A DNA stretch of 59,681 nucleotides, counting the filler, from Dirinaria sp. TL-2023a (taxonomy: Eukaryota), in assembly GCA_051941275.1 (NCBI GenBank). It is 11 parts of 11 records of this genome, joined end to end, with 100 filler letters (N's around TTAATTAATTAA, not from the genome) between each part and the next. Parts side by side here need not be neighbours in the genome. Positions count along the whole stretch, not along the records: positions 10,911 to 16,259 come from JAVEBF010001680.1; positions 16,360 to 21,707 come from JAVEBF010001681.1; 9 more parts are not named here. One strand, 5' to 3'. The notes beneath the pieces are model-generated. The model was not told the origin of the DNA and did no database searches. It saw only the letters and a list, made by a program, of their open reading frames with translations. Position numbers and translations under genes: made by a program. Positions 5,748 through 43,853 of this stretch are shown here, piece after piece; position 1 is the first letter of the stretch, and each line of letters starts with the position of its first letter.

Positions 5748-6815
5748 ATGTACGAGCTTTCGAGATGGAATCATAAAACTGGCTGTTTGTGGGACTGTGA
5801 GAATCGTAAGTGAGATTTGTCACCTGATGTACTACTATTTAGTGTACCACTATGCTGATGCGGCAACAGTCTCAGGTCAACATTCGTGGTACGGGGATTG
5901 CCTGCATCGTCTTGCGGATGATCGTTCGGCCCTCTGCAAAGCCCTGTCAAGGAGAGGTTGCGATTGCCGGCGATGTGCGAGTCTTCATCATCCCTATCAA
6001 GATGATGTAATCCTTCCTCTTCCCAAATCGCAGTGTGAACTTCAGTGGCTTCGATCGACCGCATAGCTGAGCAGCGAAACGATATCACAGCAAATCTCAA
6101 GCGAGTGTTTCAGGAGTGGAATCGTAAGTAAAATACAGATCGTTCAGTGAGACAACGTCTGACACTAACCAGCGCGCGTCCCTCCGTCGCCCTCGGCGGC
6201 TCGCAACTTTGGATCGACCTCTATTCGCCAGGAAGGTCGGCATATTCTGCAGCCTGTTCGCATAGAGTGAGCGGAAGGACTGGTCTTCTCCTTGTCAACG
6301 AGATCGACAAGTCTCGCGACACGAACGCCGAGGGCGACAAGATCCAACCATCGGAGATCAGTTGGCAATCCTTTGTCTTTGGGGCAGACAAGGACAATGT
6401 TGGGCCCTCAAGATTAAGGTGTATCGTTATTTCCCATATCATGAACGAGCACACCAAGGATGTCATCTTCCAGAGCATCCGCTCGTCAACGACGACTCTT
6501 GAGAAATCAGACGGGCACAAGGAGTTCACGGAGACTGACGACGGCTTTTATGCCCTGTTAGGCAGTCAGCTTGGGAACCTGGCTGTCAATATGCTCCTTG
6601 ATCACAAGGAAAGCATCGGGTATAAGTACGTAGACCGTGTCGTGCTCTTTGGCAAGGAGGGTATCATCTTTGGGAGCGAATGGGGATCGGCCCGGACGCT
6701 CCTGATGATACTATCCGAGCCTCGATCTCGGAAACGGGCTTCGTCAGCACCGCCTGACTTGCCGTCTACGACAATGGGAAGCAGGAAAAGGAGGAGACTG
6801 AGCAAATCCGCCTAA
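5748..6815 (+). pseudogene. Disrupted hypothetical gene; last exon 6173-6815 is open
   Basis: GTAAGT...CTRAY...CAG introns at 5806-5869 and ~6124-6172, but the middle exon has TAG 6064-6066 and incompatible phases; the 3' exon looks globular (SEISWQS, GFYALLGSQLG, MLLDHK). Confidence 0.4.
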
Positions 6816-7406: not shown

Positions 7407-8586
7407 ATGGCGCTACCTTCTGCATCGCCTGCTGACAACGCAAATTACTCTGAGGACGTATCAAATTCCGATCTTCGAGCGGAATTGAAGAGACAGTACT
7501 ACAGGGGGGAAGAAGAGTATTTTGGTGACGACATCAAGTACGATTGGCAAATCGAAACGCGAATGTTCAAACTTCAAGATTTAGCGCCAGTTTCTTCGAT
7601 CAATGGGGGTCTCAAACGGCTTTGTAATAAGTCTACGACTTTTTACTGGACTCGTAAGTCAAATCATGGCCTGTTGTTCCATATTGATATTCCTCTGTCA
7701 ATCGCCTAGAGGGATCTTAGGTGTGACCTGCGCCGACCAAAGAGACAAAATTGACCGCACCCCTTTTGAGGACGTAGGCTGACATCAAATCTTTCAAACA
7801 GTATCTGCTCAAGCTCCAGACTACTCTGCATGCCCAGCAATCGTCTTCGCCTGCATCTACAAGGCGTGGTTTCGTTGTCACGATAATCATCCGAACATCG
7901 ACTTTGGCAAATTCTTTGCAGAACCTTTCCAGATCACTCCATCAGGGCCTCAAACGATACCAGACATTCTCAAGGCACATGCACATCTCTTTGACCAAGC
8001 AATCTCGCAACTAAGTGGAATCCAAGGTGGGGAATTCGGCCACGGTCCAGAAGAACGACGCAACTGGCGAAACTACCAGCTGCTGCCCACAAGCTCGGCA
8101 TTGATCGCTCTTTATGACGAACACTTGACACCACCTGAACGCAGAAGCGATAGAACTGTCTCTCTTGATGCCGAGGCTCGACGCCGAAGCGTGGTGCTGG
8201 TCCTGACGCGACGTGATGAAGGCCTTAGCCAACCCATCAGCTTTAACGGCATCAGGTCGAAGTCACTTCCACTTGCACGAGATGATAATAGTGGGATCGA
8301 TAGTGCCAGAATCATACGCGTTCCATTGGATATCGCTGTGCAGTTCGTTGCAGACTTGCAACGAAGGGAAGATGAAGCTATGTCGGCCTCATCACAGCAG
8401 AACGCTAGTGATGCATCAGCGATTGATAGGGCAGAAGCATTCGTGGACAATATTCTCGATAATCCTTCGGGGGATACTTCGAAGCAGTTTAGGATCGATC
8501 TTGCGCTGGAGAAGATCGATTTGCGAAAGAGGGGAGAGGCTCCGGATGAGCAGGGGGTAAACCATTGGGGTATAGCCTGGGTCTAA
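7407..8586 (+). CDS. Hypothetical protein, 2 exons (7407-7653, 7802-8586), ~343 aa
   Basis: Phase-1 intron GTAAGT...GCTGAC...CAG (7654-7801) joins two open frames without stops. Confidence 0.65.
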
Positions 8587-10910
8587 GGTAAGGTAGCTTG
8601 TAACATTCTTTGACCCCCATGGTCTTATTGACCTTTCGAGCTAGCATGACATAAGCTCGAGAGCACATCACACTTTTGGACTTGTGGAAAGCAGTACGGC
8701 AAAGCAGTTCAAGTTCAAAAATGATCGTACATGACCCGCTTCCCGAGCAAAAACACATCCGTCAAGCAACCACAAATGGAGAAAATAACAGACCGCGATA
8801 TTGGCCTTCCTGTAGAGAAACACGGAAAGAGACTTGATCCCACTACCATCCGCTCGATTGCTATCTTACTTCCGATTGAGATGGGTGTTATGGTTGTTGT
8901 CATTATACTTGACCCACCATCTGATCCATAACAATTGGTGGCATCAACGAGCCGATCTAGTCGTGTACGCGCTTCCTGCGCAAAAATGTCGTCGTCGATC
9001 CTTTTGCTAGGTCTGTCGACATGGCTTCGAAAGCTGCTTGCAACGCTTCTGCTATCATGAACTTATAGGATCAAGGTACTTCATTTACTCGATGCGATGA
9101 TAGGATGCGAGCTCTTTTTTTTTTTTTCAAGCAAAGACGATTTCACAAATTGATGATCATCTGATTGGCCATGGAAGCACCATCGTCAAATCGAGATTTC
9201 GTTAAAGAATGATTTTAGGATAAAAAAGGGGGGAAAGAAGAGAAGCGGGAAAAATTGATAGATGAGATTAGGTGCTGGGGAGGAAGGGTCGGTGGGGAGA
9301 CGGAGTAGAGTCGAGTAGTGAAGTGCTAAAAGTTCTTTTTTTTTTCTTTTGTAATATGATTTTGTACCGCTGTGAGGGAATAGATATAGGATCCTCCTAA
9401 GCACGAGGTACTACCTTAGATATTCCTGAAGAGTGTTCTAACATCAATGCATACACTAATTGCCTGGGGGAAATCGATCTTTAAAGATTTTGTTATGAGA
9501 GTGCTCAGGAAAAGATAAATGATCTAGATACAAATGTCAATGATACACATACTACTGGCGGAGAGACGTCTACACGTGATCATCATGCTCACTTTCTAGA
9601 CCTGCGAGGTCCACTTTGCTCACACTGCCTCTGTGTGCTGACTTTCTATTTTTCATTTCCAAGATAGTTTCAAGTGTTCTTGAAAATTATATTGCTATTT
9701 TTATAAATCTTTTGAGATAAGCAGGGTAATTGCTACTTCGTCTGGGATTGATCAAGAAAAGGCCAAAGGCGTGATATATAGCTATGTCTTTTTTTTTTTC
9801 GATTGCATGGGATCTTATGGTTGGTTTTCAAAGGTTGTAGTCTTTTTGATAGATGTGAGTGTTTGGATATCTTTTTTTTGTTCGCGGGAGAGGAGATGAA
9901 GTTAGGTCATGAACGCACGGTATCTCGAGAACTTTTACCCTGCACTTAAATTTTTGTGATACGCAGCTAAAACGGCGTAGCAGTATCTATGATCATCATA
10001 AGCGACCCAGTCAGCGTCACTGCGTCGAAAGCTATTTAAGCTGAAAATCCCCGTTTGACTTACGCTTGTCATTTGTCTGCATAGTTCAATATTCTTGGAC
10101 CCAGATCTAGGGTATTCGTAAAAGTTCGTGATTAGCTCTTGGCTTCAGCATCGTTATTAGATCGCTATCTTCAGTAATTCTGGACGCTGCAAAGTATACA
10201 TACGTCAGGAATTGGGATTTGGTTTGTTAAAATATAGTCTTGTCCAAATTGTCATATTTCAGTGCGTCACAATGTAGTATGCTTGATCTGTAGTGAGAAC
10301 CGCGACGTTTAACAGCTATGTTGAGGCTTCTTGAAGTGGCGAAGTCTGTATTATTTGATGAACAATCAAGCACTTAAGAGATTTATCAAATCTCCTCGAG
10401 TAAAGAAGCCGATCTCGATAAGCTATCAGATCCCAAAATCCGGTCTATCGTAAACTTTCACAAATTTCGTCTGAATGAGCGAACCTCGATATTTGAACGG
10501 CATCCAATTTTGGAGATTTTTGAAAAAATTTAGAAATCGTGCTTAAGATGACTTCAAGACATGTCAAAGCTTGAAAGGACAGATATTGGCACAACCTCAT
10601 CGACAAAGAATGCAGTCGAAAGCGTGCTCCACGAAGAGAGAATAATAAATAACTTTGTAATCAGTGCCGTCAAAAAATACTCAAGCCAGTACCGCTCTCA
10701 ACCCGCGAAAGATGGACAAAATATTTGACAAGTTGGATACGGGAATGAGGTCACAGGGTACGGATTATAACAAGTGACTTTCACCTATATGTTGTATCAC
10801 AGCATGGGACNNNNNNNNNNNNNNNNNNNNNNNNNNNNNNNNNNNNNNNNNNNNTTAATTAATTAANNNNNNNNNNNNNNNNNNNNNNNNNNNNNNNNNN
10901 NNNNNNNNNN

Positions 10911-11221
10911 CTGCGAAATTGATCAAACAATGATTAAGATGTACAGTTTTTATATATGTCTAAAATTTCTGCGTTTGTTGATCTCATTGTCTGTTAAGAA
11001 CTAGACTGACAACTATTCATTGATAGAGATTAACGAGGTTATATTACTAGATGGACTTAGGTCTATGTACTAAGTACTATACAAGACGAAAGACAAGAAA
11101 AGAAGAAGGGGAATGAGGTTGTCCTGATATATAAGATTGGCAACCCCCTATAGTCGCATACGCGACGCGTGATAGACTTGACAGATTTGACTGAAGGACT
11201 ATGCGACTTAGCATCATGATA
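10911..11221 (-). repeat. Probable 3' LTR of the Gypsy element (far end not defined before the gap)
   Basis: Purine tract AAGAGAAGAAG then CTAC then TATCATG (mutated TGTCATG) starting at 11221 on minus; TATA-like run inside. Confidence 0.55.
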
Positions 11222-14200
11222 GTAGCTTCTTCTCTTGAAGACTGAGTTTCTGCGAAGCTATAGAATCAGATGAGGCGAGACGAAGACTAGATGAGACAGA
11301 AAGAAGATTGAGCGAGACAGAGATAACGACTCAATCGATCATATCAGATGATAGACTGTCGTGACGAAAACTAAACGAAAGACGAGATCGAGACGAGATT
11401 CGAGATATAACTAAGATTTCGAAAACTAAACGCATTTTAATATAATGATACACGATGATTTGACGCGTTTTACTGTGACGATGCACGATCTGAGTTACGA
11501 GACGAGACGAGACTAGACGAGAACGAAATTCTCATTATTTGTTATGACATTGACAATTTGAGATGACACACGACGTTACGTGTAATTTTTCTGCAACGAG
11601 ATGAGCGAGATAATATTTCTCAATGACTTGTTAACAGTTATTCAAAAGATAAAAGAGTTCTCAGATAGAAAAATAATTTTCTCAATCGACGTAATATTTG
11701 AGAAACGATGAATTGAAACGTAGATCACGTTTAAAATTCAGAATACTATTGACGTATCAGAATCGTTGATCATTTTCGACGATAAAAGCTTCACGAGATT
11801 TCGATATTTGATCGAGTAAGAGATTCTGAGCGACATGATTGAGAAAAATAACATAAAACATCGAGTGAATCTTCATTGACGCGAGAAATTCGAGCTCGAT
11901 TATCAGAGAGTTTTTTTCAAAGACACGTTTGACTGAGAAAAAATCAACATGTCGATCGTTTAATTTTATCGCGAGGCGAGCGATATTGAGATTACGAACG
12001 TTTAGTCAGATTTGATTCTTTACGAAATATCTGAAACAAGAACGACGAGAGCGATTGATATTAGATTCGTAGATGATTTAAACGATCAGTATTTCGTCTC
12101 GCAGATATTCGATAAGTTTTTTCATTTTTTTGACGAAATCTTCAACATTGAGTAGCTTGATTCGAGATTGAGTCGTCAATCTTTCAGATAGAGATTCAGA
12201 GAATTCGAATTCTAAACGAGAGTTTTGCTCGAAGTTGACTAAAAACGAAAACGCTAGAGTGATCGAAGAGAATACGTTATTGACAGAAAATTCGACATCG
12301 ACAAATCATTTGACTCAATCATCTTGTATGTAATTGATAAAAATTCGAAAATAGTGTTTTATGATGACGTTGACTCTTTCAGTCTGATCGTCAGTCTCGA
12401 AATAAAATGCGATAAATAACTTAACATCGATTTTCAACATTTGACATAAATGTTGTCAGATGTCAGAGATGAACTGTGTGTCTTTATCAAACACAAAAAA
12501 CTCTGACAAATCATGATATTTTCAGACGTGAGCGTAGAAACATTCAACAGTTTCTTCAATCTTCATTGAGATGATGAAAACTAGATGTCTCATTTTGATG
12601 AGACGATCAACGAAAACTAGAACATATCGATAAATTATACTTATAAAGATACTCGCTGATAGAGAATCTACGTAATTTATAAATATATCGCGTCAGCGAC
12701 GTTCGAGAACGAAGAGTGATCGTAATCAGTCTTGAGTTCTCTGTCTTAAGAACTTGAATCTCGTACATATATGACAATTTCGCACAAAACGTTGAATATA
12801 CTTATAAATGTTAAATCATCAGTATGTTCGACTAATCAGCTCGTAACACTTGATCTTTTCTGAGTGATTACTCGCAGTGCTGTCATGTGTCAATTGAATG
12901 ATTCGAAGACGAAAACGATTTAAATTTGAGATATACTTTCTCTCGCGAAAATATAAACGATTTTGAAGCTTTTCGCACTCAGTCAAAGAAATTTTATTAT
13001 GATGACGTGCTTCACTGCGAAGAGTTTCTAGAATTTGAGATGCAAATTTATCATTGCTCTCGACTTGATCTCATGAAGACTGAGTAGATATATCTGCAGA
13101 ATCGTCATTCGAGTTCGAGATTTTTTGATCTAATTGAGATTTCATATCATCGAAACTGAGTTTCTCTGCTTCATCAAAACTGAGTTCTTCGAGATCGAGA
13201 TTCAGAAAGATTACGATAACAGATGATGAGAATTGAGTCGAAAGTAAATGTAACTGAGTAGAATCTAGTGTACTGATTTGACATTGAGTTTTCAGAATTC
13301 GAGAATTTAGAACATGAGATTTGAGCACGATTTGATATTGAAACAAGTGACGAGAATCTGAATTATTTTCTTTCTTAGAGAGATCTTCTAATCGACGAAT
13401 CAGAGCATCTGATTTGTTTTCAGTTTTTTCAGAACGATAGATGATACGATAATTAAAACGAGATAAAAACTCGTTTCATTGAGTTTGACGACGACTAAAT
13501 TATTTGATGAATATAAAATATTTTAGATTCTTGTAATTCGTGATCATCTCAATTGAATAAATCAAATTTTCGAGCTTCGAACGTTATTTCTCGAAAGCGC
13601 GAACAATGATCATGAGTTTTTTGTCATAGATCTCGTAGTTACATTCGACTGAATTATGTTTCTTCGAAAAGTAAGCAATTGAATGAAGAATTTCGTTCTC
13701 ATTATACTGAGAGAGAATACTCTCAGATACGTAATCTGAGACATCGATTTTTATCACGATCTTGTGATCTGAATTGTAGTGACGAAGAATAACATCAGAG
13801 ATGAAGACTTTCTTTAACAGATCGAAGACGATCTGACATTTCGAGAATTAGACAAAGAACACATCTTTTTTGATACGACGAATTAACGAGACAGCTATTT
13901 TGCTATAGTCGTAGATGAATCTTCTGTAAAAATTCGCAAATTTTAAAAAACTCTGAACATTTTTAACATTGATTGAGATAGATCAATTCACGATTGTATT
14001 TATCTTGACTGAATTCATTTTGACTTCTTCGATCGTGATGATCAGTTCTAGATACGGGACTTGAGTAACATGAAATTCACACTTGATGATATTTATTTGT
14101 AAGTCGACTTCTCGTAACTTCTGTAGAACGAGTTTGATTTGAGTCTCATGCTCGAGCTCATTATCGCTGTAGATCAAGATGTCATCTAAGTAAATCGTAC

Positions 14201-15115
14201 AGAACTTATCTAGATATTCGCGAAAAGTGTCGTTGATATATTTCTAAAACGAGACAGATTTATTGCATAAATCGAAGAGCATGACTAGATACTCGAAAAG
14301 ATCGAAACGAGTACGAAAAACAGTTAATGTTTCATCTTTTTCTCTGATTCGAAGTTTATTGAACGCGCTGATGATATCTAGTTTCGTGAATATCTTAGCA
14401 CGACTTAGACGATTGAGAGTCTCGAAGATTAAGAGCAGAGAATAATGCTTTTTAACAGTGATGACATTAAAATCTCTATAATTCACGCAGAAACGAAGTT
14501 CTTCTTCGAATTTCTTGACGAACAGAACAGAGACGATCGTTTGAAAGCGACTAGCTCGAATAAATTCTTTTCTAAAATTCTCATCTAGATATCGACGAAA
14601 TTCTAAAACCTCATCACGACTCATGTCGTACAAGACGAAGACTGAGATTTGAGTATCTTTCTTGAGATGTATGACGTGATCGTAGAGTTTATACAAAGGC
14701 AGAGTATTTGTTTTAATTTTGAAGAAGACATTTAGATAATCGTGATATTGCAGAAACAGAATGATGACTGAGTCAACGTTTTTGTTTCGTCGATAGAATT
14801 TAAACTTCTTTCGAGTGACGACTGTGACTAAATGAAGTTTCTTTTTCATTCGATACAAGACTAGACGATGATCTCGATCATAACTGCTGATCTTGATACT
14901 TTCGTAAAGAGACGAAAGTTTTTTGTTCTGACAAAGACTCGAGATTTCAGATAAAGAATAAAAAAAACGTGACGAAATAAGACTCAGATAGATGTTTATT
15001 TCTTTCAAGATTAAGCTGAACATCTCGAAATTCTTGAAACGAGTAGCACGATCAAAATCTCGAGTTCTCAACTCTGCAATATCGAGTTGTATAAAAGATC
15101 GAGTGTTCTGCTGTG

Positions 15116-15624
15116 TGTCAAAGACCCAACCTTGGTTAGATAGGTTTCCCAATAATAAAAGTCCCGACATGACCAAAAGACTAACTAAATCAAGTCGAAG
15201 ACTTGGTGTCTATCTTACTACTTATGTTTCAGAATCGTAACATTATCTCGATCCCTCGGCTTAGCTTCGTCCCGAAGCTAGCGTTGAGAGAAGTGAGGAA
15301 ATTCAAGACCCTGTAGAGAATGCTAGCTAATCAGAGTGACTCATGACGCTCAGAAATCAATGTACGTCTATCGAAACAAGTAGTCGCCCCGAGCTTAGAT
15401 AAGCTCTCAGTCGACAGATCTCGTCGAAAAACAACTCTTCAAGCGTTCGAGCTGAGATTCTAACTCAGAATCTTGCGACCGTGTTGACTTGATTTAATGT
15501 CAAAGACTCAACCTTGGTTAGATAGGTTTCTCAATGGTAAAAGTCCCGGCATAGTCAAAAGACTAACTAAACCAAGTCGGAGACTTGGTGCCTATCTTAC
15601 TACTTATGTTCCAGGATCGTAACA
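15116..15624 (-). mobile_element. TRIM-like miniature non-autonomous LTR element nested in the Gypsy pol region
   Basis: Two 127-bp direct repeats (15116-15242, 15498-15624) with TG...CA ends; 255-bp non-coding interior; perfect TSD CTGTG at 15111-15115 and 15625-15629; purine-rich tract before the minus-strand 3' LTR. Confidence 0.92.
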
Positions 15625-15789
15625 CTGTGCTCGTCGTTCAGTTGAGATTCGCATGAGCGAGAGACTTCGATACTTGATCTTAAGTGAGTATCTTTTTCGA
15701 AAAGCTTGAAGAATACGACTAAATGTATCTAGAGATAAATCTTGATCAGACTCGTGCGAGACGAGATTTAGCTGAGACTGAGGGGAAAC

Positions 15790-16070
15790 TAAATTACTGA
15801 ATTGCTTCTTTCGAGCAGACTGAGTACTAGATTGCTTCTTGCGAGCGAACTGAGTACGAGATAATCTCTTGTGAGTTTCTGAATAACTAGACTGTTTCTG
15901 ACAGACGAACTCGATATTGAATTGTCTTTTGTAAACTTCTGAATGACTAGATTGCTTCTGACGAGCGGACTGAATACTGAGTTGTCTTTTCTGAGTTTTC
16001 ATAAAACTGAGTTGCTTTTTACGAGTCGACTGAAGACTGAGTTGTCTTTTCTGAGCTTTCGTGAAACTGA
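15790..16070 (-). repeat. ~30-bp degenerate tandem repeat inside the Gypsy ORF (10-aa unit like QSARKKQSST)
   Basis: Recurring gactgagttgtc/actagattgcttc units at ~30-bp spacing. Confidence 0.7.
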
Positions 16071-16497
16071 ATTAATTTTTCAAAGAGAATACTGAATGAG
16101 ATGAAAAATTGTTCATCTCGTTTAGATTTTCTTGATTTTAAAGTTTTCAGATTCGCTGAGATTTCTGAGAGAACAGAAACTCTTTTTCTTCTCGAATAGT
16201 GTTATAAATTTAAATCGAGAACTAACAACAATGAGCGAGACAAAAAGAGAAGAATATGANNNNNNNNNNNNNNNNNNNNNNNNNNNNNNNNNNNNNNNNN
16301 NNNTTAATTAATTAANNNNNNNNNNNNNNNNNNNNNNNNNNNNNNNNNNNNNNNNNNNNATAGTGCTCCCTTTTGGAAAAAAAGAAAAAGAAAAAAAAAA
16401 AAAAAAAAAAAAACAAAACCGACACAATGCCACCGGGGGTATCTTATGCTTCCAGAAACACCAGGAGAAATCCTTAAGAGTATGCACAAATCGACGC

Positions 16498-16618
16498 TCA
16501 CTCGACCAGATCGCAAAACTCCTGCGTGGAAAGATCGAAGTCCTCTTCTTCATCACAGAACGACTCCTTTCCGTTCCTCGACTGGTCTTTGACATGTTTT
16601 TTCTCCGCCAATGGTAAC

Positions 16619-16679
<61 letters not shown>

Positions 16680-18096
16680 TTGTTGTTGTTGTTGCGTGCT
16701 CCACATATCTCGCCACGTCCTCGAGCTCACTATCGCTCAGCTCGTCGCAGCCGAACGAGTCAGTCCCTCCTTCGATCTTACGAGGCGCTTTACTTTCATT
16801 CTTCGGGGATACTAGTTCCTCTTCCGGCTCATCGGACGAGAAGTCGCTCGCGTAATTCAGATCTTGCGTACAGATCCCCGCCAGGAGCGATGCTGCTTCG
16901 TCTTTCGGTGGAGGTGGTGATAATGGGGGGTTTTTCGGCGGCTGCCGCGCGGAAGCGAAGCCGTGCTTGCGGTACCCGTGCTGTATGGGTGTTTTTGTGG
17001 TCGGCGGTGCTGCCTTGAGCAGCATTGTTTCTGGAGTTGAGAGCTCACGCTCGATCTGGGTGTTGCTCACGAGGAACGCGGCCCAGCTGTCATCGGGAGG
17101 TGGTTTGGCTTTCGCTTTCGGGAGGTTGGCGCCGGGGTGGGAGCCATTGCTGGGTTTGGGGTAAGGGGCTCGGTGTGAAAGCAATGAACATGATGGTGGA
17201 AGCACTGGCTTCTGCGATGATGGTAACCTGGAGGAAATGGGTGATTTGGAGTTCTCAATTGGAGATCGATTGTTGATCTCGGATGGTTTAGCTGGTGCTG
17301 CTGCCGCTGCCGAAACTGTGGGTCTGGGTGGAGGACGCATTGACCCTGCAGGCGTTGCGCTTCTATGTGGCTTGGGTGCTGGGGCCATAACCTCGCGAGC
17401 TTGGGTAGAAGATGTGGTGTTTGTAGAGGCATTTTTTGTGAAGGTGCTCGCAGCGTTCGTTAAGTCTTTAGACGGCCTGTTGAATGCAGGTTTCGGTTGA
17501 CGTAGCACAGTAGACACATTCGGGTGCTTCGATGAGGACCTTTTGGAACACCCACCCATCCCGATTGCTGCTTTTGGCTTTGTTGGCGCGCTTAAGACTC
17601 CATTATGATTCTCGGATCTACGCGCTGAGATCTGTGCTGAGGAGGCAATGACCGGGTTGTGCGAAAGTGGCTCCAACGGGCGTCTTTCTTGGATTGCCTT
17701 TTCCACCGCATGGCTAGTTTGCGAGGCTCCCAGTTCGTCACCGCTGCTCTGCGGCGTCAAGACGGGAGACTGCTCCCGTTTTCGCTTTAAATCCGTTCCA
17801 AAATCTAAGAATTTACTCAATCGCATCTGGCTCGCGCCAACCGTCTCCTTGCTCGGGCTAGCTATCCCCATCCTCTGCCTTGCTTCACGCTCCCTCTCGA
17901 TTCTCTCATTCTTCTTCCTAATGTTGGCTTTGCGTTTGTTCTCCCTCTCTCTTATGCGACCAGCTCTCTCTTGGAGTTCAGCGCTGCGCTCCAACTGCCG
18001 TCGCTCGCGTTCTGTCAGACGAACAACACCGCCAGATCTCTGATATGCACGGCGCGCTTGACGCAGAGTTTGCGGACGAGAAGAGATCTGTGGCAT
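16498..18096 (-). CDS. Low-complexity, probably disordered protein with N-terminal charged coiled coil and acidic C-terminus
   Basis: Long open frame; likely start MPQISSRPQTLRQARRAY at 18096; P/S/A-rich; poly-Ser tract. Confidence 0.7.
16619..16693 (+). repeat. Compound coding microsatellite (GAT)~20(GTT)~5
   Basis: Direct reading; encodes poly-Thr/poly-Ser in the minus-strand CDS. Confidence 0.95.
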
Positions 18097-38023: not shown

Positions 38024-40136
38024 NNNNNNNNNNNNNNNNNNNNNNNNNNNNNNNNNNNNNNNNNNNNTTAATTAATTAANNNNNNNNNNNNNNNNNNNNN
38101 NNNNNNNNNNNNNNNNNNNNNNNTCTTGAATAAATGTCCATTTTCCTGCACAGAATTATGACAGGCATGATGCCCAGCTTGCATAGACTCTGAATTGATC
38201 CAGTAGTGGAGTGAAAAGTGTAAGCATGCTAATGGTTCAGATGCGAGAGATATGAGACCGGTAAGTGTGTGTGCGCACTTAGTGGCCTGTGGATTGGTAC
38301 GTTGATTGATTCTATTCCTTTTTCTTAATTCCTCTGGCTTTGGCATTGGTATAATTTTAGTGACTTGTCTTTTCGATAATAACTTTTCATTGACAGCCTA
38401 GTCCATTAATTGTTATCTTGCGAATACGATCTGTCATGTTTGCATGGAAGGGTTGAGATGATCTTTTTTGTAGTCCTGAAACCAGCATGCTGCCAGAGAT
38501 TCGCTGGAAAGTTATACCAGAAAGTAATCACAAAGAAGTCACCAGTTCGAATTTGACCGTGAGCAGATAGAGAAAGAACCCATGATAGACACATGGCTAG
38601 CCTAGTTCATCTACGCATATGATCGCTGCTTGAAGGTAGCTTTCGATCGAGTAGGGAGCCAGATTATCCCAACGTACCCCTGCGCATTGTCTATCACAAG
38701 GTTTGCAGTAATTTCAATATATGGGCGAAATATTCGTAAATGGTCTCAGGTTATGAGATATAAAGAGGGAACCTCAGGAGCAGTGAACATTCGAAGTTAC
38801 CGAGAGAAAGATCTGTAAATGAAAGGTTGAAGTTTGAGGATGAAGAAAAAGCAAAGGGTGTTTAATCCTCGGTAAGGCTGTCATTGAGGTGTCAATGGTT
38901 ACGCCGAGGAGGTAAATAGGGATCAGGACATAGAAAAGGTGATTAAGGTCGTTATAGTATAATATCACGGCGCCGTTCTTAAAACTCGCGACTATAAATG
39001 ATGGTTACAGCAAGCCAATAGTCTGTGCTGGCACCAGTCCAACGAAATTAAGATTGCTCATATAATTGCTATGTGTAGCCGAGAGTGTAGCACTTTGCTG
39101 AAATGGCAGTAGCCTGAAACGCTCTCATTGAAGAAACCACCCTCCCATGATGCTCGTAGTATCTGGCGTAGCATCCAGCGTATCATGAAGTCTGGACGTA
39201 TGTATAGCGATTTACATCCAACAAAATTGATAAAATCTTACCAGCCAGTTAAGTCGAGTGTTGGCACAAGAGCATCGCTCTAGACGTGCGTAAAGAGCAT
39301 TCAAGAAGATCAGATTTTATACTTCTTCAAGGCTTTTGATGGGATCCCTTAATCATTTGCTCTCTGAGAGAGCAGCAGCTACATCAAGGTCGCGAGAAGC
39401 CTGAAAAATGCTGCTATCAACCACAATATGACAACAAGCGATACTTTTTTTGTTGAAAATATCGCTTATCTCTAGCATCTTGACACTGTGTACATCATGC
39501 AATCGAAGACGAGTATAGAATCCTATCTTAAATCATCAAAACTGGAAGGAGTTTTTGATAACGAACGCAGGAACGTTTCGAAACAAGTTCGATATCAGTC
39601 TTGTGAAGGGGATCTAAGTAGATCACTTGGTGTATCTACAACGTGAGCTTGTTTCATGTTCCCGTGAAATTCTGATACAGAGAATCATGTCTGTAATCAT
39701 TATGTTGGTTTTTATATCGACGTCAGCCAGCGCTCAAATTAGCTTACTTGCTGATTTAAAGTCGCTTGTAGAGAGAGGAAAAGAAGAAGAAGAAGACAAT
39801 AAAAAGAAAGAGAATAGAGAATGTCAAACTCACTCGAAAAGAAATGTAATATAATGACACTGAACAAATTCAAAAAAAGGGGGAGGGGGAAAAGACAAGA
39901 ATATCCCGACCCCCGTCTTGTTCAACACTGCAATTCTCGCTCTGATATAGATAACTCATTCTGATTTCGTTTCCCTGGTCTAAACACTATGATATAGAGA
40001 TCAGGAGAGTTCAAAAATAATATGAATGCATTCGTCAAAAGCCCCCAAAAAAAAAAGAAAAAGAAAAAAAAAAAGAAGAAAAGTAAGGGGGGCTCTGGTG
40101 GGACTCGAACCCTCACTCTCAAAAATCACAAAAGAT

Positions 40137-40231
40137 AGGAACCCGACTGCACATCAGCGCCAGCACTCTGGACTAGCGGGGTTTCATCCCTACTATCTCG
40201 AGCAGCCCTCTGCACCATCATCGGGATTCCT
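40137..40231 (-). ncRNA. Unassigned structured 95-nt Pol III-type RNA, copy 1
   Basis: 93/95 identical to copy 2 while flanks diverge; terminal stem AGGAAUCCCGA/UCGGGUUCCU; A box 40207-40217; T-run; downstream B box GGTTCGAGTCC 40101-40111. Confidence 0.65.
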
Positions 40232-40306
40232 GGAAAAGACTTTTTAATTTAAAATCATATGTTTTTTATTAATTCATTTATTTTTTGTTTTTTATGTGTT
40301 GCTTCG

Positions 40307-40417
40307 TGTCAAAAGGATCCTGACTCTCTTGACGACATGATAATCATCAAAAGATCAGCTAAATCAAGTCGCTGACTTAATGTTCTATCTGATTACAAAT
40401 GTTCCAAGGTCGTAACA
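40307..40417 (-). mobile_element. Solo LTR related to the TRIM LTRs at 15116/15498
   Basis: TGTCAAA...TCGTAACA ends; last ~70 bp align with the TRIM LTR (caaaagatcagctaaatcaagtcg...tgttccaaggtcgtaaca vs caaaagactaactaaatcaagtcg...tgttccaggatcgtaaca). Confidence 0.75.
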
Positions 40418-40594
40418 CTTTTGAATCATGTTATATCTCGATGTTTATCTGACAAGTACTTATATATCTTAATTATTAACTTGTTAGCTAGACTATAGCA
40501 ATTGCTTTCAAGCAAAAAAAAAGTGGTTCATTTTATATTGCTGTAAATAATCTTGATTATAAGTTCTTCGAGTAAAGAAGACTCATTCATTTCA

Positions 40595-40694: not shown

Positions 40695-40793
40695 CTTCAA
40701 ATCAATAAAAAAAGAGAAAAAGAAAAAGAAAAAGAAAACAGAAAATGAGCAAGAGGTGGTTCGAACCCACGACCTTTCAGAAAAACATCAAAA

Positions 40794-40888
40794 AGGAACC
40801 CAACTGCACATCAGCGCCAGCACTCTGGACTAGCGGGGTTTTATCCCTACTATCTCGAGCAGCCCTCTGCACCATCATCGGGATTCCT
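40794..40888 (-). ncRNA. Unassigned structured 95-nt Pol III-type RNA, copy 2
   Basis: TATA-rich 40906-40918 upstream; A box 40864-40874; ends GGTTCCTTTTT; B box GGTTCGAACC at ~40757-40767 within a tRNA-3'-half-like remnant. Confidence 0.65.
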
Positions 40889-43853
40889 TAAAAGACCAAC
40901 CCCAATTATAATATATATCTTCTATTCAAAAAAGATTTTTTTCATATGGCTCATGTCCTACTCGCGTTTATTCAGCATGATGGGCGCGACTAAGATAATG
41001 AAACATGCTGAACTACAACGCAGACTCTGTAGCGATTCAACGCGCAGTGTCATGATGTTTTCCAATATTTCAGTGCGTCTGAATAGCTGGAAGGTCAAAG
41101 CTCGTAGTTTCACGCCTTGGGAACAGCCAGCAGGTTTGTCGGGATGTCAATGAAAGCGATTCGAGAGACACATTTCAAGCTCTATCTTCTTGGCCCCACA
41201 AGCTCATGAATCCACTTCCAGAGTGGATTGAAACGCTTGGCCATCTTTAAGGCTCGATCTAAAACGTATAAAGGTTTCTGAGGTGTCACTGTTAAAGTTA
41301 GATGAAAGCGCCTTGCGTTCTCGATAAAGCTTGTGATATCCGCTCGCTTCGAATGACTGCTTCGATACTTCTGCTTCGATCTACTCACCGACACTATGCC
41401 TCGAACGGGTTTTCAAGATCTTGTCTTTACGTTTCTAGTCACAAAGGCTTCTGTCGGTGCGCGCTGGCGTGGTACATGTGTGCCTGCTATAGCCTACTTA
41501 GTCGCTTTGACATTCTGCCGCACAAATCCGAAGGGCATGCTTTCACGGAAGAACTCTTGCTGAGAGTAGACTGTGGATTGAACACCATTAGTACTCGAAT
41601 TTAAGAGCTGGCAAAGAGCATTGGGGTAGTCTGATTCAATTCTACTGATTGCAGCACAGGTGTTGCGTCTCGCTACGCAAGAAGTCTGTGGACTACTAGG
41701 ATTCATCAGCTAAGGGGCTCGAACGTAGTAGGGTGGCTACAATCAAAAGCTGAGAAGGGTTCGCGCCTAGCCTTGTAAAGAAACGTCGTAGTTTCTCACT
41801 CTTATTCGGCCAGATCGAATAATTCTAGTTTAGGCTCCGTTTTATGATCTATGGGTCTGGCTAACACGCTTGACCACAGAGGTTCCCCAACGAGATTGGC
41901 AAGGCCAAAGCTTCATCAACAGCAGAATACATCCTTTTGTGACTGAAATTGTTGGCTCTTGAGTTTGCGTGTTTTTGTCTTGATCTTTGGAGCTGAAGGA
42001 CGAGACCTCATGTACGTTGCCAGGCTGCAATATCGCTTCCCATCGCAAAATTTCCTTGCAACTTTTTGTTGAAACTATCTTGTTCATACTTTAGAAGAGG
42101 AAATATCCTGACAAACTTTTCTGCTTCAGTTCCTAGATGTTCCTTGTCCCTACTTTTTGCACGCAAAGGATTTTAGAGTGGAGGATATTTTGGGCCGCGA
42201 CTGTAATCTTAGACAAGCTCTTCTAGGAGCTATGGACAAGAATACATTGGGAGAGCACGCTCGAGGATGTCATGCAGTGATGAAGTTGCTATAGAGGCTC
42301 GAGGACGACGAGGCGAAAGATATGTTGACTCGTGGTTGAGCTACAATCTTTGTAAAAAGCGAGGTGGTGGAGATCCAAGGAAATGTGGGGGCTAGGATGG
42401 CGAGCTGGTTGGAAATGAAGTCTCAATCTGGTGTCTTTAATTCATATTGACACGAGGTAGATATGGATACTGTGGGAGGATTTTATCAGAGGGGTCGTAG
42501 GTGCGACTATGGCGCCCCCATTGTCTTGCCTGTGTGGTGGAGCTGCAGATGTTGTATCTCCTGTTCCGGGTTTGAAAAGACGGAAGTAGGAAGATGGTGC
42601 GCTGTCAAGCATCGACCTGATAAAGAGAATCTGGCTGGGTCACGGGACTAATGGCGCGCCCTAGCCTAAGGCGTCTGGTGAACCAACATACCATAATCAC
42701 GCGGTCGCTATCATAGTGCAGGCCTATTTATGCATCAGGCTCGTTTTCCACGGCGGTTGATCAGGACGAGTAGCCAAGATGCCAGAATGGATGCTTGATA
42801 GTTGTTCGCTTTGTGCCTAGCCTAAAAATTCCGAAGAAGGCTGTTGGCTCGCGAATGCAAAATACTGTTGGGACATTTGGACTGCCTCGAGTCGATATGG
42901 CCTCGCCCTCATGCAGTACTAAGACTGTCCTTGAGACACAGCAGTGAGGCAGGCCACATGGGCTGGAGTTATATTCCTATTGGCTCTTGTAGATTTTTAA
43001 CATGAAGATCTTTTAATTGGACAGGTCTGCTTAGTCAGGACTGCGATACCTAGATAATTTCGGCGCTGGATGGCTCGATGTTGGACAAAGGAATCCCTCT
43101 TACTTCAACAAAGAGCCTGATGGTAACTTGACCGCATCGAGGTTCTGATGGCAGTACTGTCGAGCAGCGACCCGTAAGAGTGGATCAGCGTGGGGGTGCT
43201 GAGAGTAAGTCCAAGAGAGTAAAAGTCCAATGAACTCAGCTTTGACACCGTTGGATCAATAGAGACGTCCTTTCCTGAAGAAGTCCTCCGCTAATTAATA
43301 TTGAAGAGGACTGAAAGTCAGACAACATTTATTATATTGACGGAACAACGAATCGGCGTCGGGCATAACGACCTGAAGCAACAAAAACAAAACGGATTGA
43401 CGGAATAATAGATAGCGAAAGAAATTAAAAGCCTACTGATGGCAGAACNNNNNNNNNNNNNNNNNNNNNNNNNNNNNNNNNNNNNNNNNNNNTTAATTAA
43501 TTAANNNNNNNNNNNNNNNNNNNNNNNNNNNNNNNNNNNNNNNNNNNNCCTAAATCAAAAGGCTTATGTTTCCTACGAAAAGGTTCCATCGGCTTAGTGA
43601 AATCTCGAAAATCAGATTTGTACATTGCCCCTTTCGGGCTTTCAAAATATATACATTGAAGAAGAAACAAAAAACCGGATGCTAGGCTAATGAGTCGCCG
43701 TCACCATGCTCTAGGTATGAGTGGCTCGGAAAGCTTAATTGTCGTCCATGCGATAAAAATGCGGCCAAGGTGGCAAAGTGCTTTTTGAAAAAAGAAAAGA
43801 AAAAAAAGGAGTAAAAACTATGCTGGAAAAAGATTTCGAGCATGCTCGAACCC

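Follow-up and report, generated by a model that had tools for sequence, protein, structure and literature searches.

Repeat-induced point mutation, or RIP, which depends on RID and/or DIM-2 in Neurospora and other Pezizomycotina, produces C:G to T:A transitions on both strands of transposon and repeat DNA, in blocks, and can go to saturation. In Neurospora, the order of target preference is CpA > CpT > CpG > CpC. Variants exist in which other contexts are mutated, namely CpG and CpA in Aspergillus and Penicillium, and TpCpG in Microbotryum and other Pucciniomycotina. A distinct C-to-T activity is that of the APOBEC3G deaminase, which acts on the 3' C of CC in minus-strand cDNA and leaves GG>AG changes on one strand. 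Here, we have analyzed a 59,681-nt stretch of DNA from Dirinaria sp. TL-2023a (assembly GCA_051941275.1), hereafter the window, in which one contig (JAVEBF010001680.1, positions 10911-16259) carries a Ty3/Gypsy long terminal repeat (LTR) retrotransposon that has lost almost all of its CpC dinucleotides and kept its CpG. A first-pass annotation of this contig had proposed a CpC target preference, which is borne out both by counts and protein changes in the window and by the polarity of changes relative to an intact copy among its relatives.

How RIP selects its target has been described for Neurospora where, according to the accessible part of that account, a methyltransferase-type enzyme must flip out the cytosine, the nearest 3' neighbor is dominant while further ones are minor, and CpA is preferred (bioRxiv 10.1101/344036). 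CpA is the dominant context in the accessible portions of three further papers (PMC5555474, PMC5737583, and PMC12543289), with CpC only a minor class in the first two. The third, which surveyed 1,239 genomes of fungi, ascribes a shared CpA preference to RIP-like defences, and its accessible text never mentions CpC; in that of PMC5602860, "CPC" is a strain code. As for lichen fungi (Cladonia rangiformis, Xanthoria, and Pyrenodesmia), the accessible parts of the relevant reports base their RIP calls on GC content or on the CpA-based indices of RIPper, with no dinucleotide analysis (PMC12542154, 10.1101/2025.11.25.690456, 10.1101/2023.01.10.523206, and PMC13535494). The word "dinucleotide" is absent from the accessible text of PMC12542154, which does report RID and DIM-2 homologues in Cladonia, and both "dinucleotide" and "CpA" are absent from that of 10.1101/2023.01.10.523206. 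The RIP-like CpC specificity described below is thus a variant that we did not find described in the literature searched, which included few subscription journals and no supplements, so that an earlier account is possible.

A Gypsy element almost devoid of CC and GG

The contig at 10911-16259 is a whole assembly contig, small (5349 bp) and unplaced, with linkers and N runs on both sides, and it consists of transposon sequence throughout. A single minus-strand frame, starting at 16259, contains in this order a reverse transcriptase (Pfam RVT_1, 1.2e-18), two RNase H models (RT_RNaseH_2, 2.3e-18, and RT_RNaseH), and an integrase zinc domain (Integrase_H2C2, 7.3e-10). This is the pol domain order required of a Ty3/Gypsy LTR retrotransposon, which the element is. 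The Gypsy body spans 3841 bp (11275-15115, minus strand), and the pol reading frame on which all our comparisons are based occupies 1180 codons of it (11562-15101, minus strand). This frame contains 21 stops (15 TGA, 5 TAA, and 1 TAG), and alignment to an intact relative, L009, introduced below, shows that it is unbroken over 1013 aligned codons, with in-frame indels only. The Gypsy's own LTRs were not found within the contig, and a chromodomain-like tail was an impression by eye, with no Pfam match.

As can be seen from dinucleotide counts, with expected values derived from each segment's own composition, the Gypsy body is saturated by CpC>TpC change. It contains 1 CC where 90.6 are expected and 4 GG where 134.6 are expected, which amounts to a loss of ~98% of CpC, and its longest stretch free of both dinucleotides is 2081 bp. 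The products of the change are in excess, with 299 TC (186.9 expected) and 481 GA (246.1 expected). CG, at 216 against 110.4 expected, is about twice as frequent as composition predicts. The dearth of CC and GG and the richness in CG noted at first pass are therefore both real, and the signature of CpC loss is itself near certain. It is also confined, within the window, to transposon DNA. The contig as a whole has a GC content of 0.353 and observed/expected (o/e) ratios of 0.18 for CC+GG, 1.67 for CG, and 1.69 for TC+GA, while CC+GG o/e in the remaining ten contigs of the window is 0.88-1.02. Because these ten are normal, the depletion is not a genome-wide bias, and the equal depletion of single-copy DNA that would have spoken against a repeat-linked process was not seen.

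The usual indices are blind to this pattern. In the Gypsy body, TpA/ApT is 0.59 and (CpA+TpG)/(ApC+GpT) is 1.05. The composite RIP index of -0.46 falls inside the range of ordinary contigs (-0.46 to -0.74), and the Gypsy body would therefore escape a RIP call, so the expectation that CpA-based indices under-call such mutation holds true for this contig. By contrast, an index built on CpC, (TpC+GpA)/(CpC+GpG), takes a value of 156 in the Gypsy body versus 1.25 in neighboring contigs.

Mutation falls on the 5' C of CC

Which of the two cytosines is mutated can be read from the protein. A HMMER search with the window pol gave 91,470 relatives, the best with 37% identity, and we aligned the window pol with 36 of these homologues, examining columns conserved in at least 70%. 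None of the 20 conserved Gly is kept; 14 have become GAN and 6 AAN, but none AGN. Of 25 conserved Pro only one is left, the others reading TCN (14), TTY (6), CTC (3), and GTT (1), and all eight conserved Trp have turned into stops (6 TGA and 2 TAA, but no TAG). Conserved Lys (12/12), Asn (8/8), and Tyr (9/9) are unchanged. Since Gly never becomes AGN and Trp never TAG, the mutated base is the 5' C of CC or, seen from the other strand, the 3' G of GG. The CTC codons are the remnant that is left when the middle C of CCC mutates first.

Comparison with L009 leads to the same picture, with none of 42 Gly and two of 66 Pro kept in the window. The 13 Trp codons that align with L009 have all become stops in the window (TGA in 11 cases and TAA in 2), in agreement with the earlier remark that TGG often reads TGA. 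That remark had been accompanied by two consensus strings for conserved reverse transcriptase residues, which were guesses; both KKPGGGLRF and FGLFEYLVMPFGL do occur in L009, their counterparts in the window being KKFEEELRF and FDLFEYLVMLFDL, respectively.

The following base alone decides which cytosine is hit

Scanning metagenome contigs with the read-through pol gave 616 matching stretches, of which 578 could be confirmed, and we retained 79 loci. One of these, L009, is intact, with 1040 codons free of stops, a GC content of 0.50, and a CC+GG o/e of 0.95, and we used it as the unmutated state for assigning polarity. It shares 77-83% identity with the mutated copies of its own family. Of the 493 differences between L009 and one such copy, L001, 402 are C>T or G>A, 49 are transitions in the reverse direction, and 42 are transversions.

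Context rates were then calculated as the share of L009 cytosines that are read as T, pooled over five mutated copies. When the next base is C, this share is 0.82 after A, 0.84 after C, 0.78 after G, and 0.88 after T. It drops to 0.19-0.25 for N[C]G, 0.10-0.18 for N[C]T, and 0.04-0.08 for N[C]A, the contrast being plainest between T[C]C (0.88) and T[C]G (0.19). CpC sites of the sense strand are hit at a rate of 0.82 and those of the antisense strand at 0.85. Hence, the base at +1 decides, the base at -1 is irrelevant, and the two strands are hit equally. The aligned relatives are dominated by CpC changes, and the dominance of CpA changes that would have contradicted the first-pass annotation was not seen.

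The window element is more distant from L009, with 66% nucleotide and 59% amino acid identity, and the same polarity is visible in it. C>T or G>A accounts for 612 of 1023 differences, and 210 of the 419 amino acid mismatches are explained by codon changes consisting of C>T or G>A only. In the opposite direction, T>C is found at 4% of TpC sites versus 12-14% in other contexts.

This target rule is like that of Neurospora RIP in that the 3' neighbor picks the target and other neighbors have little influence. It is unlike it in the identity of that neighbor, CpC being the most and CpA the least preferred context here (0.04-0.08), with no enrichment of TpA (TpA/ApT 0.59) and a negative CpA-based composite index. 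The variants of Aspergillus, Penicillium, and Microbotryum provide a precedent for repeat-directed C>T hypermutation whose context varies with the lineage, but they are not known to remove CC and GG. The TpCpG type of Microbotryum differs further, as only 0.19 of T[C]G sites are changed here, the window element is CpG-rich (o/e ~2), and preferential loss of TCG was not encountered.

Related loci with and without the signature

The signature recurs in related loci. In the matched part, CC+GG o/e is at or below 0.05 in 61 of the 79 loci, between 0.05 and 0.5 in 8, and normal in 10, and the mutated loci come from 14 accession prefixes. The intact L009 occurs under the same prefix as saturated copies. 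At two loci (L002 and L030), the whole 9.3 kb, pol flanks included, are without any CC or GG. At another (L057), the CC/GG-free block stops within a few bases at position 7422, beyond which density is normal. The DNA past this edge yielded no host gene that could be clearly recognized, its one match being a weak one to DUF3435 that falls below the Pfam cut-off, and the edge is therefore a candidate boundary between repeat and unique DNA.

CpG shows a different behavior. Among CC/GG-free copies (L001-L068), CG o/e is graded from 1.41 down to 0.24, with CA+TG rising to 1.58 and GC falling to 0.26. This graded loss looks like a slower second process that sets in once CpC is exhausted, and the window copy, with its CG o/e of ~2, stands at the unworn end of the gradient.

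Two partly mutated loci, L066 and L067, have kept 17 and 28 CC but 59 and 66 GG, respectively, the intact L009 having 262 CC and 118 GG; these counts represent a strand asymmetry at a stage short of saturation.

A nested element was mutated after it had inserted

The Gypsy body is interrupted at its upstream end by a 509-bp insertion (15116-15624), lightly mutated, with 24 CC and 12 GG left. It consists of two 127-bp LTRs of TG...CA type, at 15116-15242 and 15498-15624, on either side of a 255-bp interior, and it is flanked by a 5-bp target-site duplication, CTGTG (15111-15115 and 15625-15629). With a length under 1 kb, short TG...CA LTRs, a target duplication, and no coding capacity, it is a terminal-repeat retrotransposon in miniature (TRIM), although we did not identify a primer-binding site or a polypurine tract in it.

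The LTRs differ at 13 sites, and 13 of 13 differences are transitions. When the C or G variant is taken as the older state, 11 changes are at CpC (CC>TC or GG>GA), 2 at CpA (TG>TA), and none at CpG or CpT, which reproduces exactly the hand count made at first pass. Expressed per site-copy, this corresponds to 11/38 for CpC, 2/30 for CpA, 0/12 for CpG, and 0/32 for CpT (Fisher P = 1e-4, CpC versus the rest). Nine of the changes fall in LTR 1 and four in LTR 2, each LTR having both C>T and G>A. Because the two LTRs were identical at insertion, these changes arose after integration, in double-stranded DNA. Moreover, mutation probably recurred, as the TRIM has CpC changes of its own despite being mutated to a much smaller extent than the surrounding Gypsy. 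Depletion in the TRIM, as in the 364 bp at the left end of the contig, is much weaker than in the Gypsy body; for the TRIM, this could mean that insertion followed the main wave of mutation or that its short length made it a less efficient target. Nested younger insertions are likewise less mutated than their surroundings in C. rangiformis, according to the accessible part of PMC12542154.

These observations bear on the possibility that an AID/APOBEC-like enzyme edited retrotransposon cDNA during reverse transcription. The target is indeed a retroelement, inactivated through C>T and G>A mutation, including the conversion of Trp codons to stops, and the CC dinucleotide is also favored by APOBEC3G. 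However, APOBEC3G takes the 3' C, giving GG>AG, whereas here it is the 5' C that mutates (GG>GA) with no influence of the base at -1, the two strands are equally affected (0.82 versus 0.85), each TRIM LTR gained C>T and G>A after integration, and the CC/GG-free blocks reach beyond pol to span whole 9.3-kb loci. With neither strand-specific changes nor a 5'-neighbor context in evidence, and Gly never AGN, cDNA editing is close to refuted and, in our estimation, very improbable.

The same molecule speaks to whether the signature could be damage or an artefact. Ultraviolet (UV) light causes C>T at dipyrimidines, and a small unplaced contig is the kind of piece in which a sequencing or assembly error might be suspected. 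Yet, the depletion is local and saturating, ten neighboring contigs are normal, and a saturated segment and a near-normal TRIM lie on one molecule. A pyrimidine at -1 has no effect, mutation at CpT is 5 to 8 times rarer than at CpC, and the signature is found under 14 accession prefixes. Locality, context, and recurrence thus bring both UV damage and artefact close to refutation, and we give them hardly any credence.

No relative of the TRIM was found among the 79 fetched loci, and the only one inside the window is a diverged LTR relic at 40300-40419 (77-78% identity to the TRIM LTR over ~70 nt, both ending in GTAACA), which sits in an AT-rich stretch with no CC/GG depletion and is ambiguous as an outgroup for polarity. 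At L074, a CC/GG-free block encloses 260 bp (5802-6058) in which CC/GG density is normal, and the terminus of this island, ...ATCGTAACA (...GGATCGTAACA), is identical to the end of the window TRIM LTR; a young insertion, either a solo LTR or another small element, is the probable explanation.

Probable mechanism and its alternatives

Taken together, the findings are likely to reflect a RIP-like hypermutation that acted on double-stranded DNA after integration, its target being set by a C at +1. What makes the process RIP-like is that a rule involving the 3' neighbor only matches the description of RIP in Neurospora. A Ty3/Gypsy element, now dead, would have been hypermutated after its entry into the chromosome, with C changed to T on both strands and the target chosen almost wholly by the C that follows. 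Runs of C would in this way be reduced to their last C, and runs of G to their first G; such trimming makes CC and GG vanish and TC and GA accumulate, while CpG survives. Most likely, the process works as RIP does, with a cytosine-methyltransferase-type enzyme that would read the 3' neighbor of a C it has flipped out, acting on repeated DNA, probably during the sexual cycle, in repeated rounds until target sites are exhausted. Saturation in a frame that is still intact implies that mutation was fast relative to background decay. We infer an enzyme of RID/DIM-2 type, a dependence on repeats or homology, and premeiotic timing. Repeat-directed action is suggested by association: the mutated DNA is transposon, its neighbors in the window are unmutated, and L057 has a sharp edge.

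A slower route to the same outcome would be methylation-driven decay, in which a DNA methyltransferase marks CpC in heterochromatic transposons and 5-methylcytosine deaminates gradually, with no homology search or premeiotic step. The location of the signature in AT-rich transposon blocks would suit such a process, as would the graded loss of CpG in the relatives (CG o/e from 1.41 to 0.24, CA+TG up to 1.58), which is like ordinary methylated-CpG decay, and the partial mutation of the short nested TRIM, which a time-dependent process is expected to leave. A slow process should, however, also leave comparable background changes and frameshifts, whereas in the window ~98% of CpC is gone, with CpG at twice expectation and the frame intact over 1013 codons. 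The edge of the L057 block, sharp to a few bases, and the shared accession prefix of the intact L009 and saturated copies also argue against decay, which we therefore regard as unlikely.

The nature of the enzyme raises a further alternative, that of a cytosine deaminase unrelated to RID and DIM-2 that acts on double-stranded DNA and is directed to repeats or heterochromatin. The ranking CpC >> CpG > CpT > CpA is the opposite of that of Neurospora RIP, which might point to a different enzyme. On the other hand, known deaminases mostly read the 5' neighbor, and no candidate gene was seen, although no search aimed at one was made. A rule in which +1 decides and -1 is irrelevant is how methyltransferase-type RIP behaves, according to the accessible part of bioRxiv 10.1101/344036, even if the CpA preference common to RIP-like defences in the accessible text of the 1,239-genome survey (PMC12543289) makes a different enzyme conceivable. 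We find such a deaminase quite improbable. A bolder version of the RIP-like explanation is that the enzyme has a target rule new to genome defence, being either a RID-family protein re-tuned from CpA to CpC or a double-stranded-DNA deaminase unrelated to RID, and that it works alongside CpA-directed RIP, or replaces it, in an ascomycete lineage. This is a distinctly unlikely scenario; were it true, two loci that combine CpC and CpA loss (L011 and L043) would record two separate systems.

RIP-like hypermutation after integration is thus the explanation that we favor, and several points weigh against it. Concerning the context rates, the 66% identity between L009 and the window blurs those of the window itself, where T is found at 71% of the CpC sites of L009 and, with inflation by divergence outside CpC, at 40% of CpT, 28% of CpA, and 21% of CpG. 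The clean rates were obtained from a sister family, present in metagenome contigs that are possibly of other species. Several of the 61 saturated loci, as well as the five pooled copies, are near-duplicates (e.g., L007 and L008) and do not represent independent events. Some changes in the window are outside CpC, with two TGG>TAA relative to L009, and three His>Tyr and one Gln>TAG at columns conserved in the 36 homologues. The direction of change between the TRIM LTRs is assigned by assumption, and the diverged relic shows T at two comparable sites.

Other points complicate this explanation. Many CC/GG-free relatives are also CpG-poor, so more than one process may act on them. L011 and L043 show heavy CpA loss too (0.43 and 0.58 of sites, respectively) and, unlike other mutated copies, a raised TA o/e with CG o/e of 1.75 and 2.29, so that some genomes may have a second process, of the classical CpA type. 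Finally, as the contig is all transposon, the window displays no edge between repeat and unique DNA, and the evidence comprises the window and related public sequences, a scope outside which homology dependence, copy number, the sexual cycle, and the enzyme lie.

In its overall appearance, the signature is like RIP of Neurospora and other Pezizomycotina: C:G to T:A transitions on both strands, in transposon DNA, in blocks (one with a sharp edge, at L057), and up to saturation. It also resembles RIP in lichen fungi, where the affected blocks are AT-rich and transposon-derived. A lineage that removes CpC would be scored as RIP-poor by CpA-based indices and TpA enrichment, despite having kilobases of saturated DNA. 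As nearly all Gly, Pro, and Trp codons are rewritten, word-based and family searches would miss such elements, which affects transposon annotation. A natural specificity variant would make the question of context preference testable, by comparing target recognition in RID and DIM-2 between CpA-type and CpC-type fungi, and a context-specific C-to-T activity on double-stranded DNA would be of interest as a tool.

Other features of the contig and of the window

To the right of the TRIM, the gag-side (upstream) part of the same Gypsy continues to the contig end, which truncates it (15625-16259, minus strand). It is homologous to the sequence that relatives carry upstream of pol, and it is depleted as well, with no CC (14.5 expected) and 4 GG (28.7 expected). 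It contains 30/60-bp tandem repeats at 15801-16070, and relatives have repeats in the same place. The 364-bp left end of the contig (10911-11274) is partly depleted, with 5 CC (8.6 expected) and 9 GG (17.1 expected), and only 11205-11308 resembles the region downstream of pol in relatives.

The window is composed of eleven contigs, from 5360 down to 5305 bp, arranged in order of falling length. They are joined by ten linkers, each of the form N44-TTAATTAATTAA-N44 (e.g., 10811-10910 and 16260-16359), so adjacent pieces are not genome neighbors. The other ten contigs harbor ordinary fungal genes, including those for VID27, whose nearest protein cluster is mostly from Ascomycota, PEX6, urease, and a major facilitator superfamily (MFS) transporter. 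A direct repeat of ~190 bp (84% identity, with a near-identical core of ~110 bp) is present at 40048-40240 and 40707-40896. It carries a tRNA-like GGTTCGAACC motif on the opposite strand and may be akin to a short interspersed nuclear element (SINE), although ARAGORN found no tRNA in it. The contig that follows position 16259 begins with an A-rich run (16380-16415) and then has a long (GAT)n tract that changes into (GTT)n at 16617-16690.

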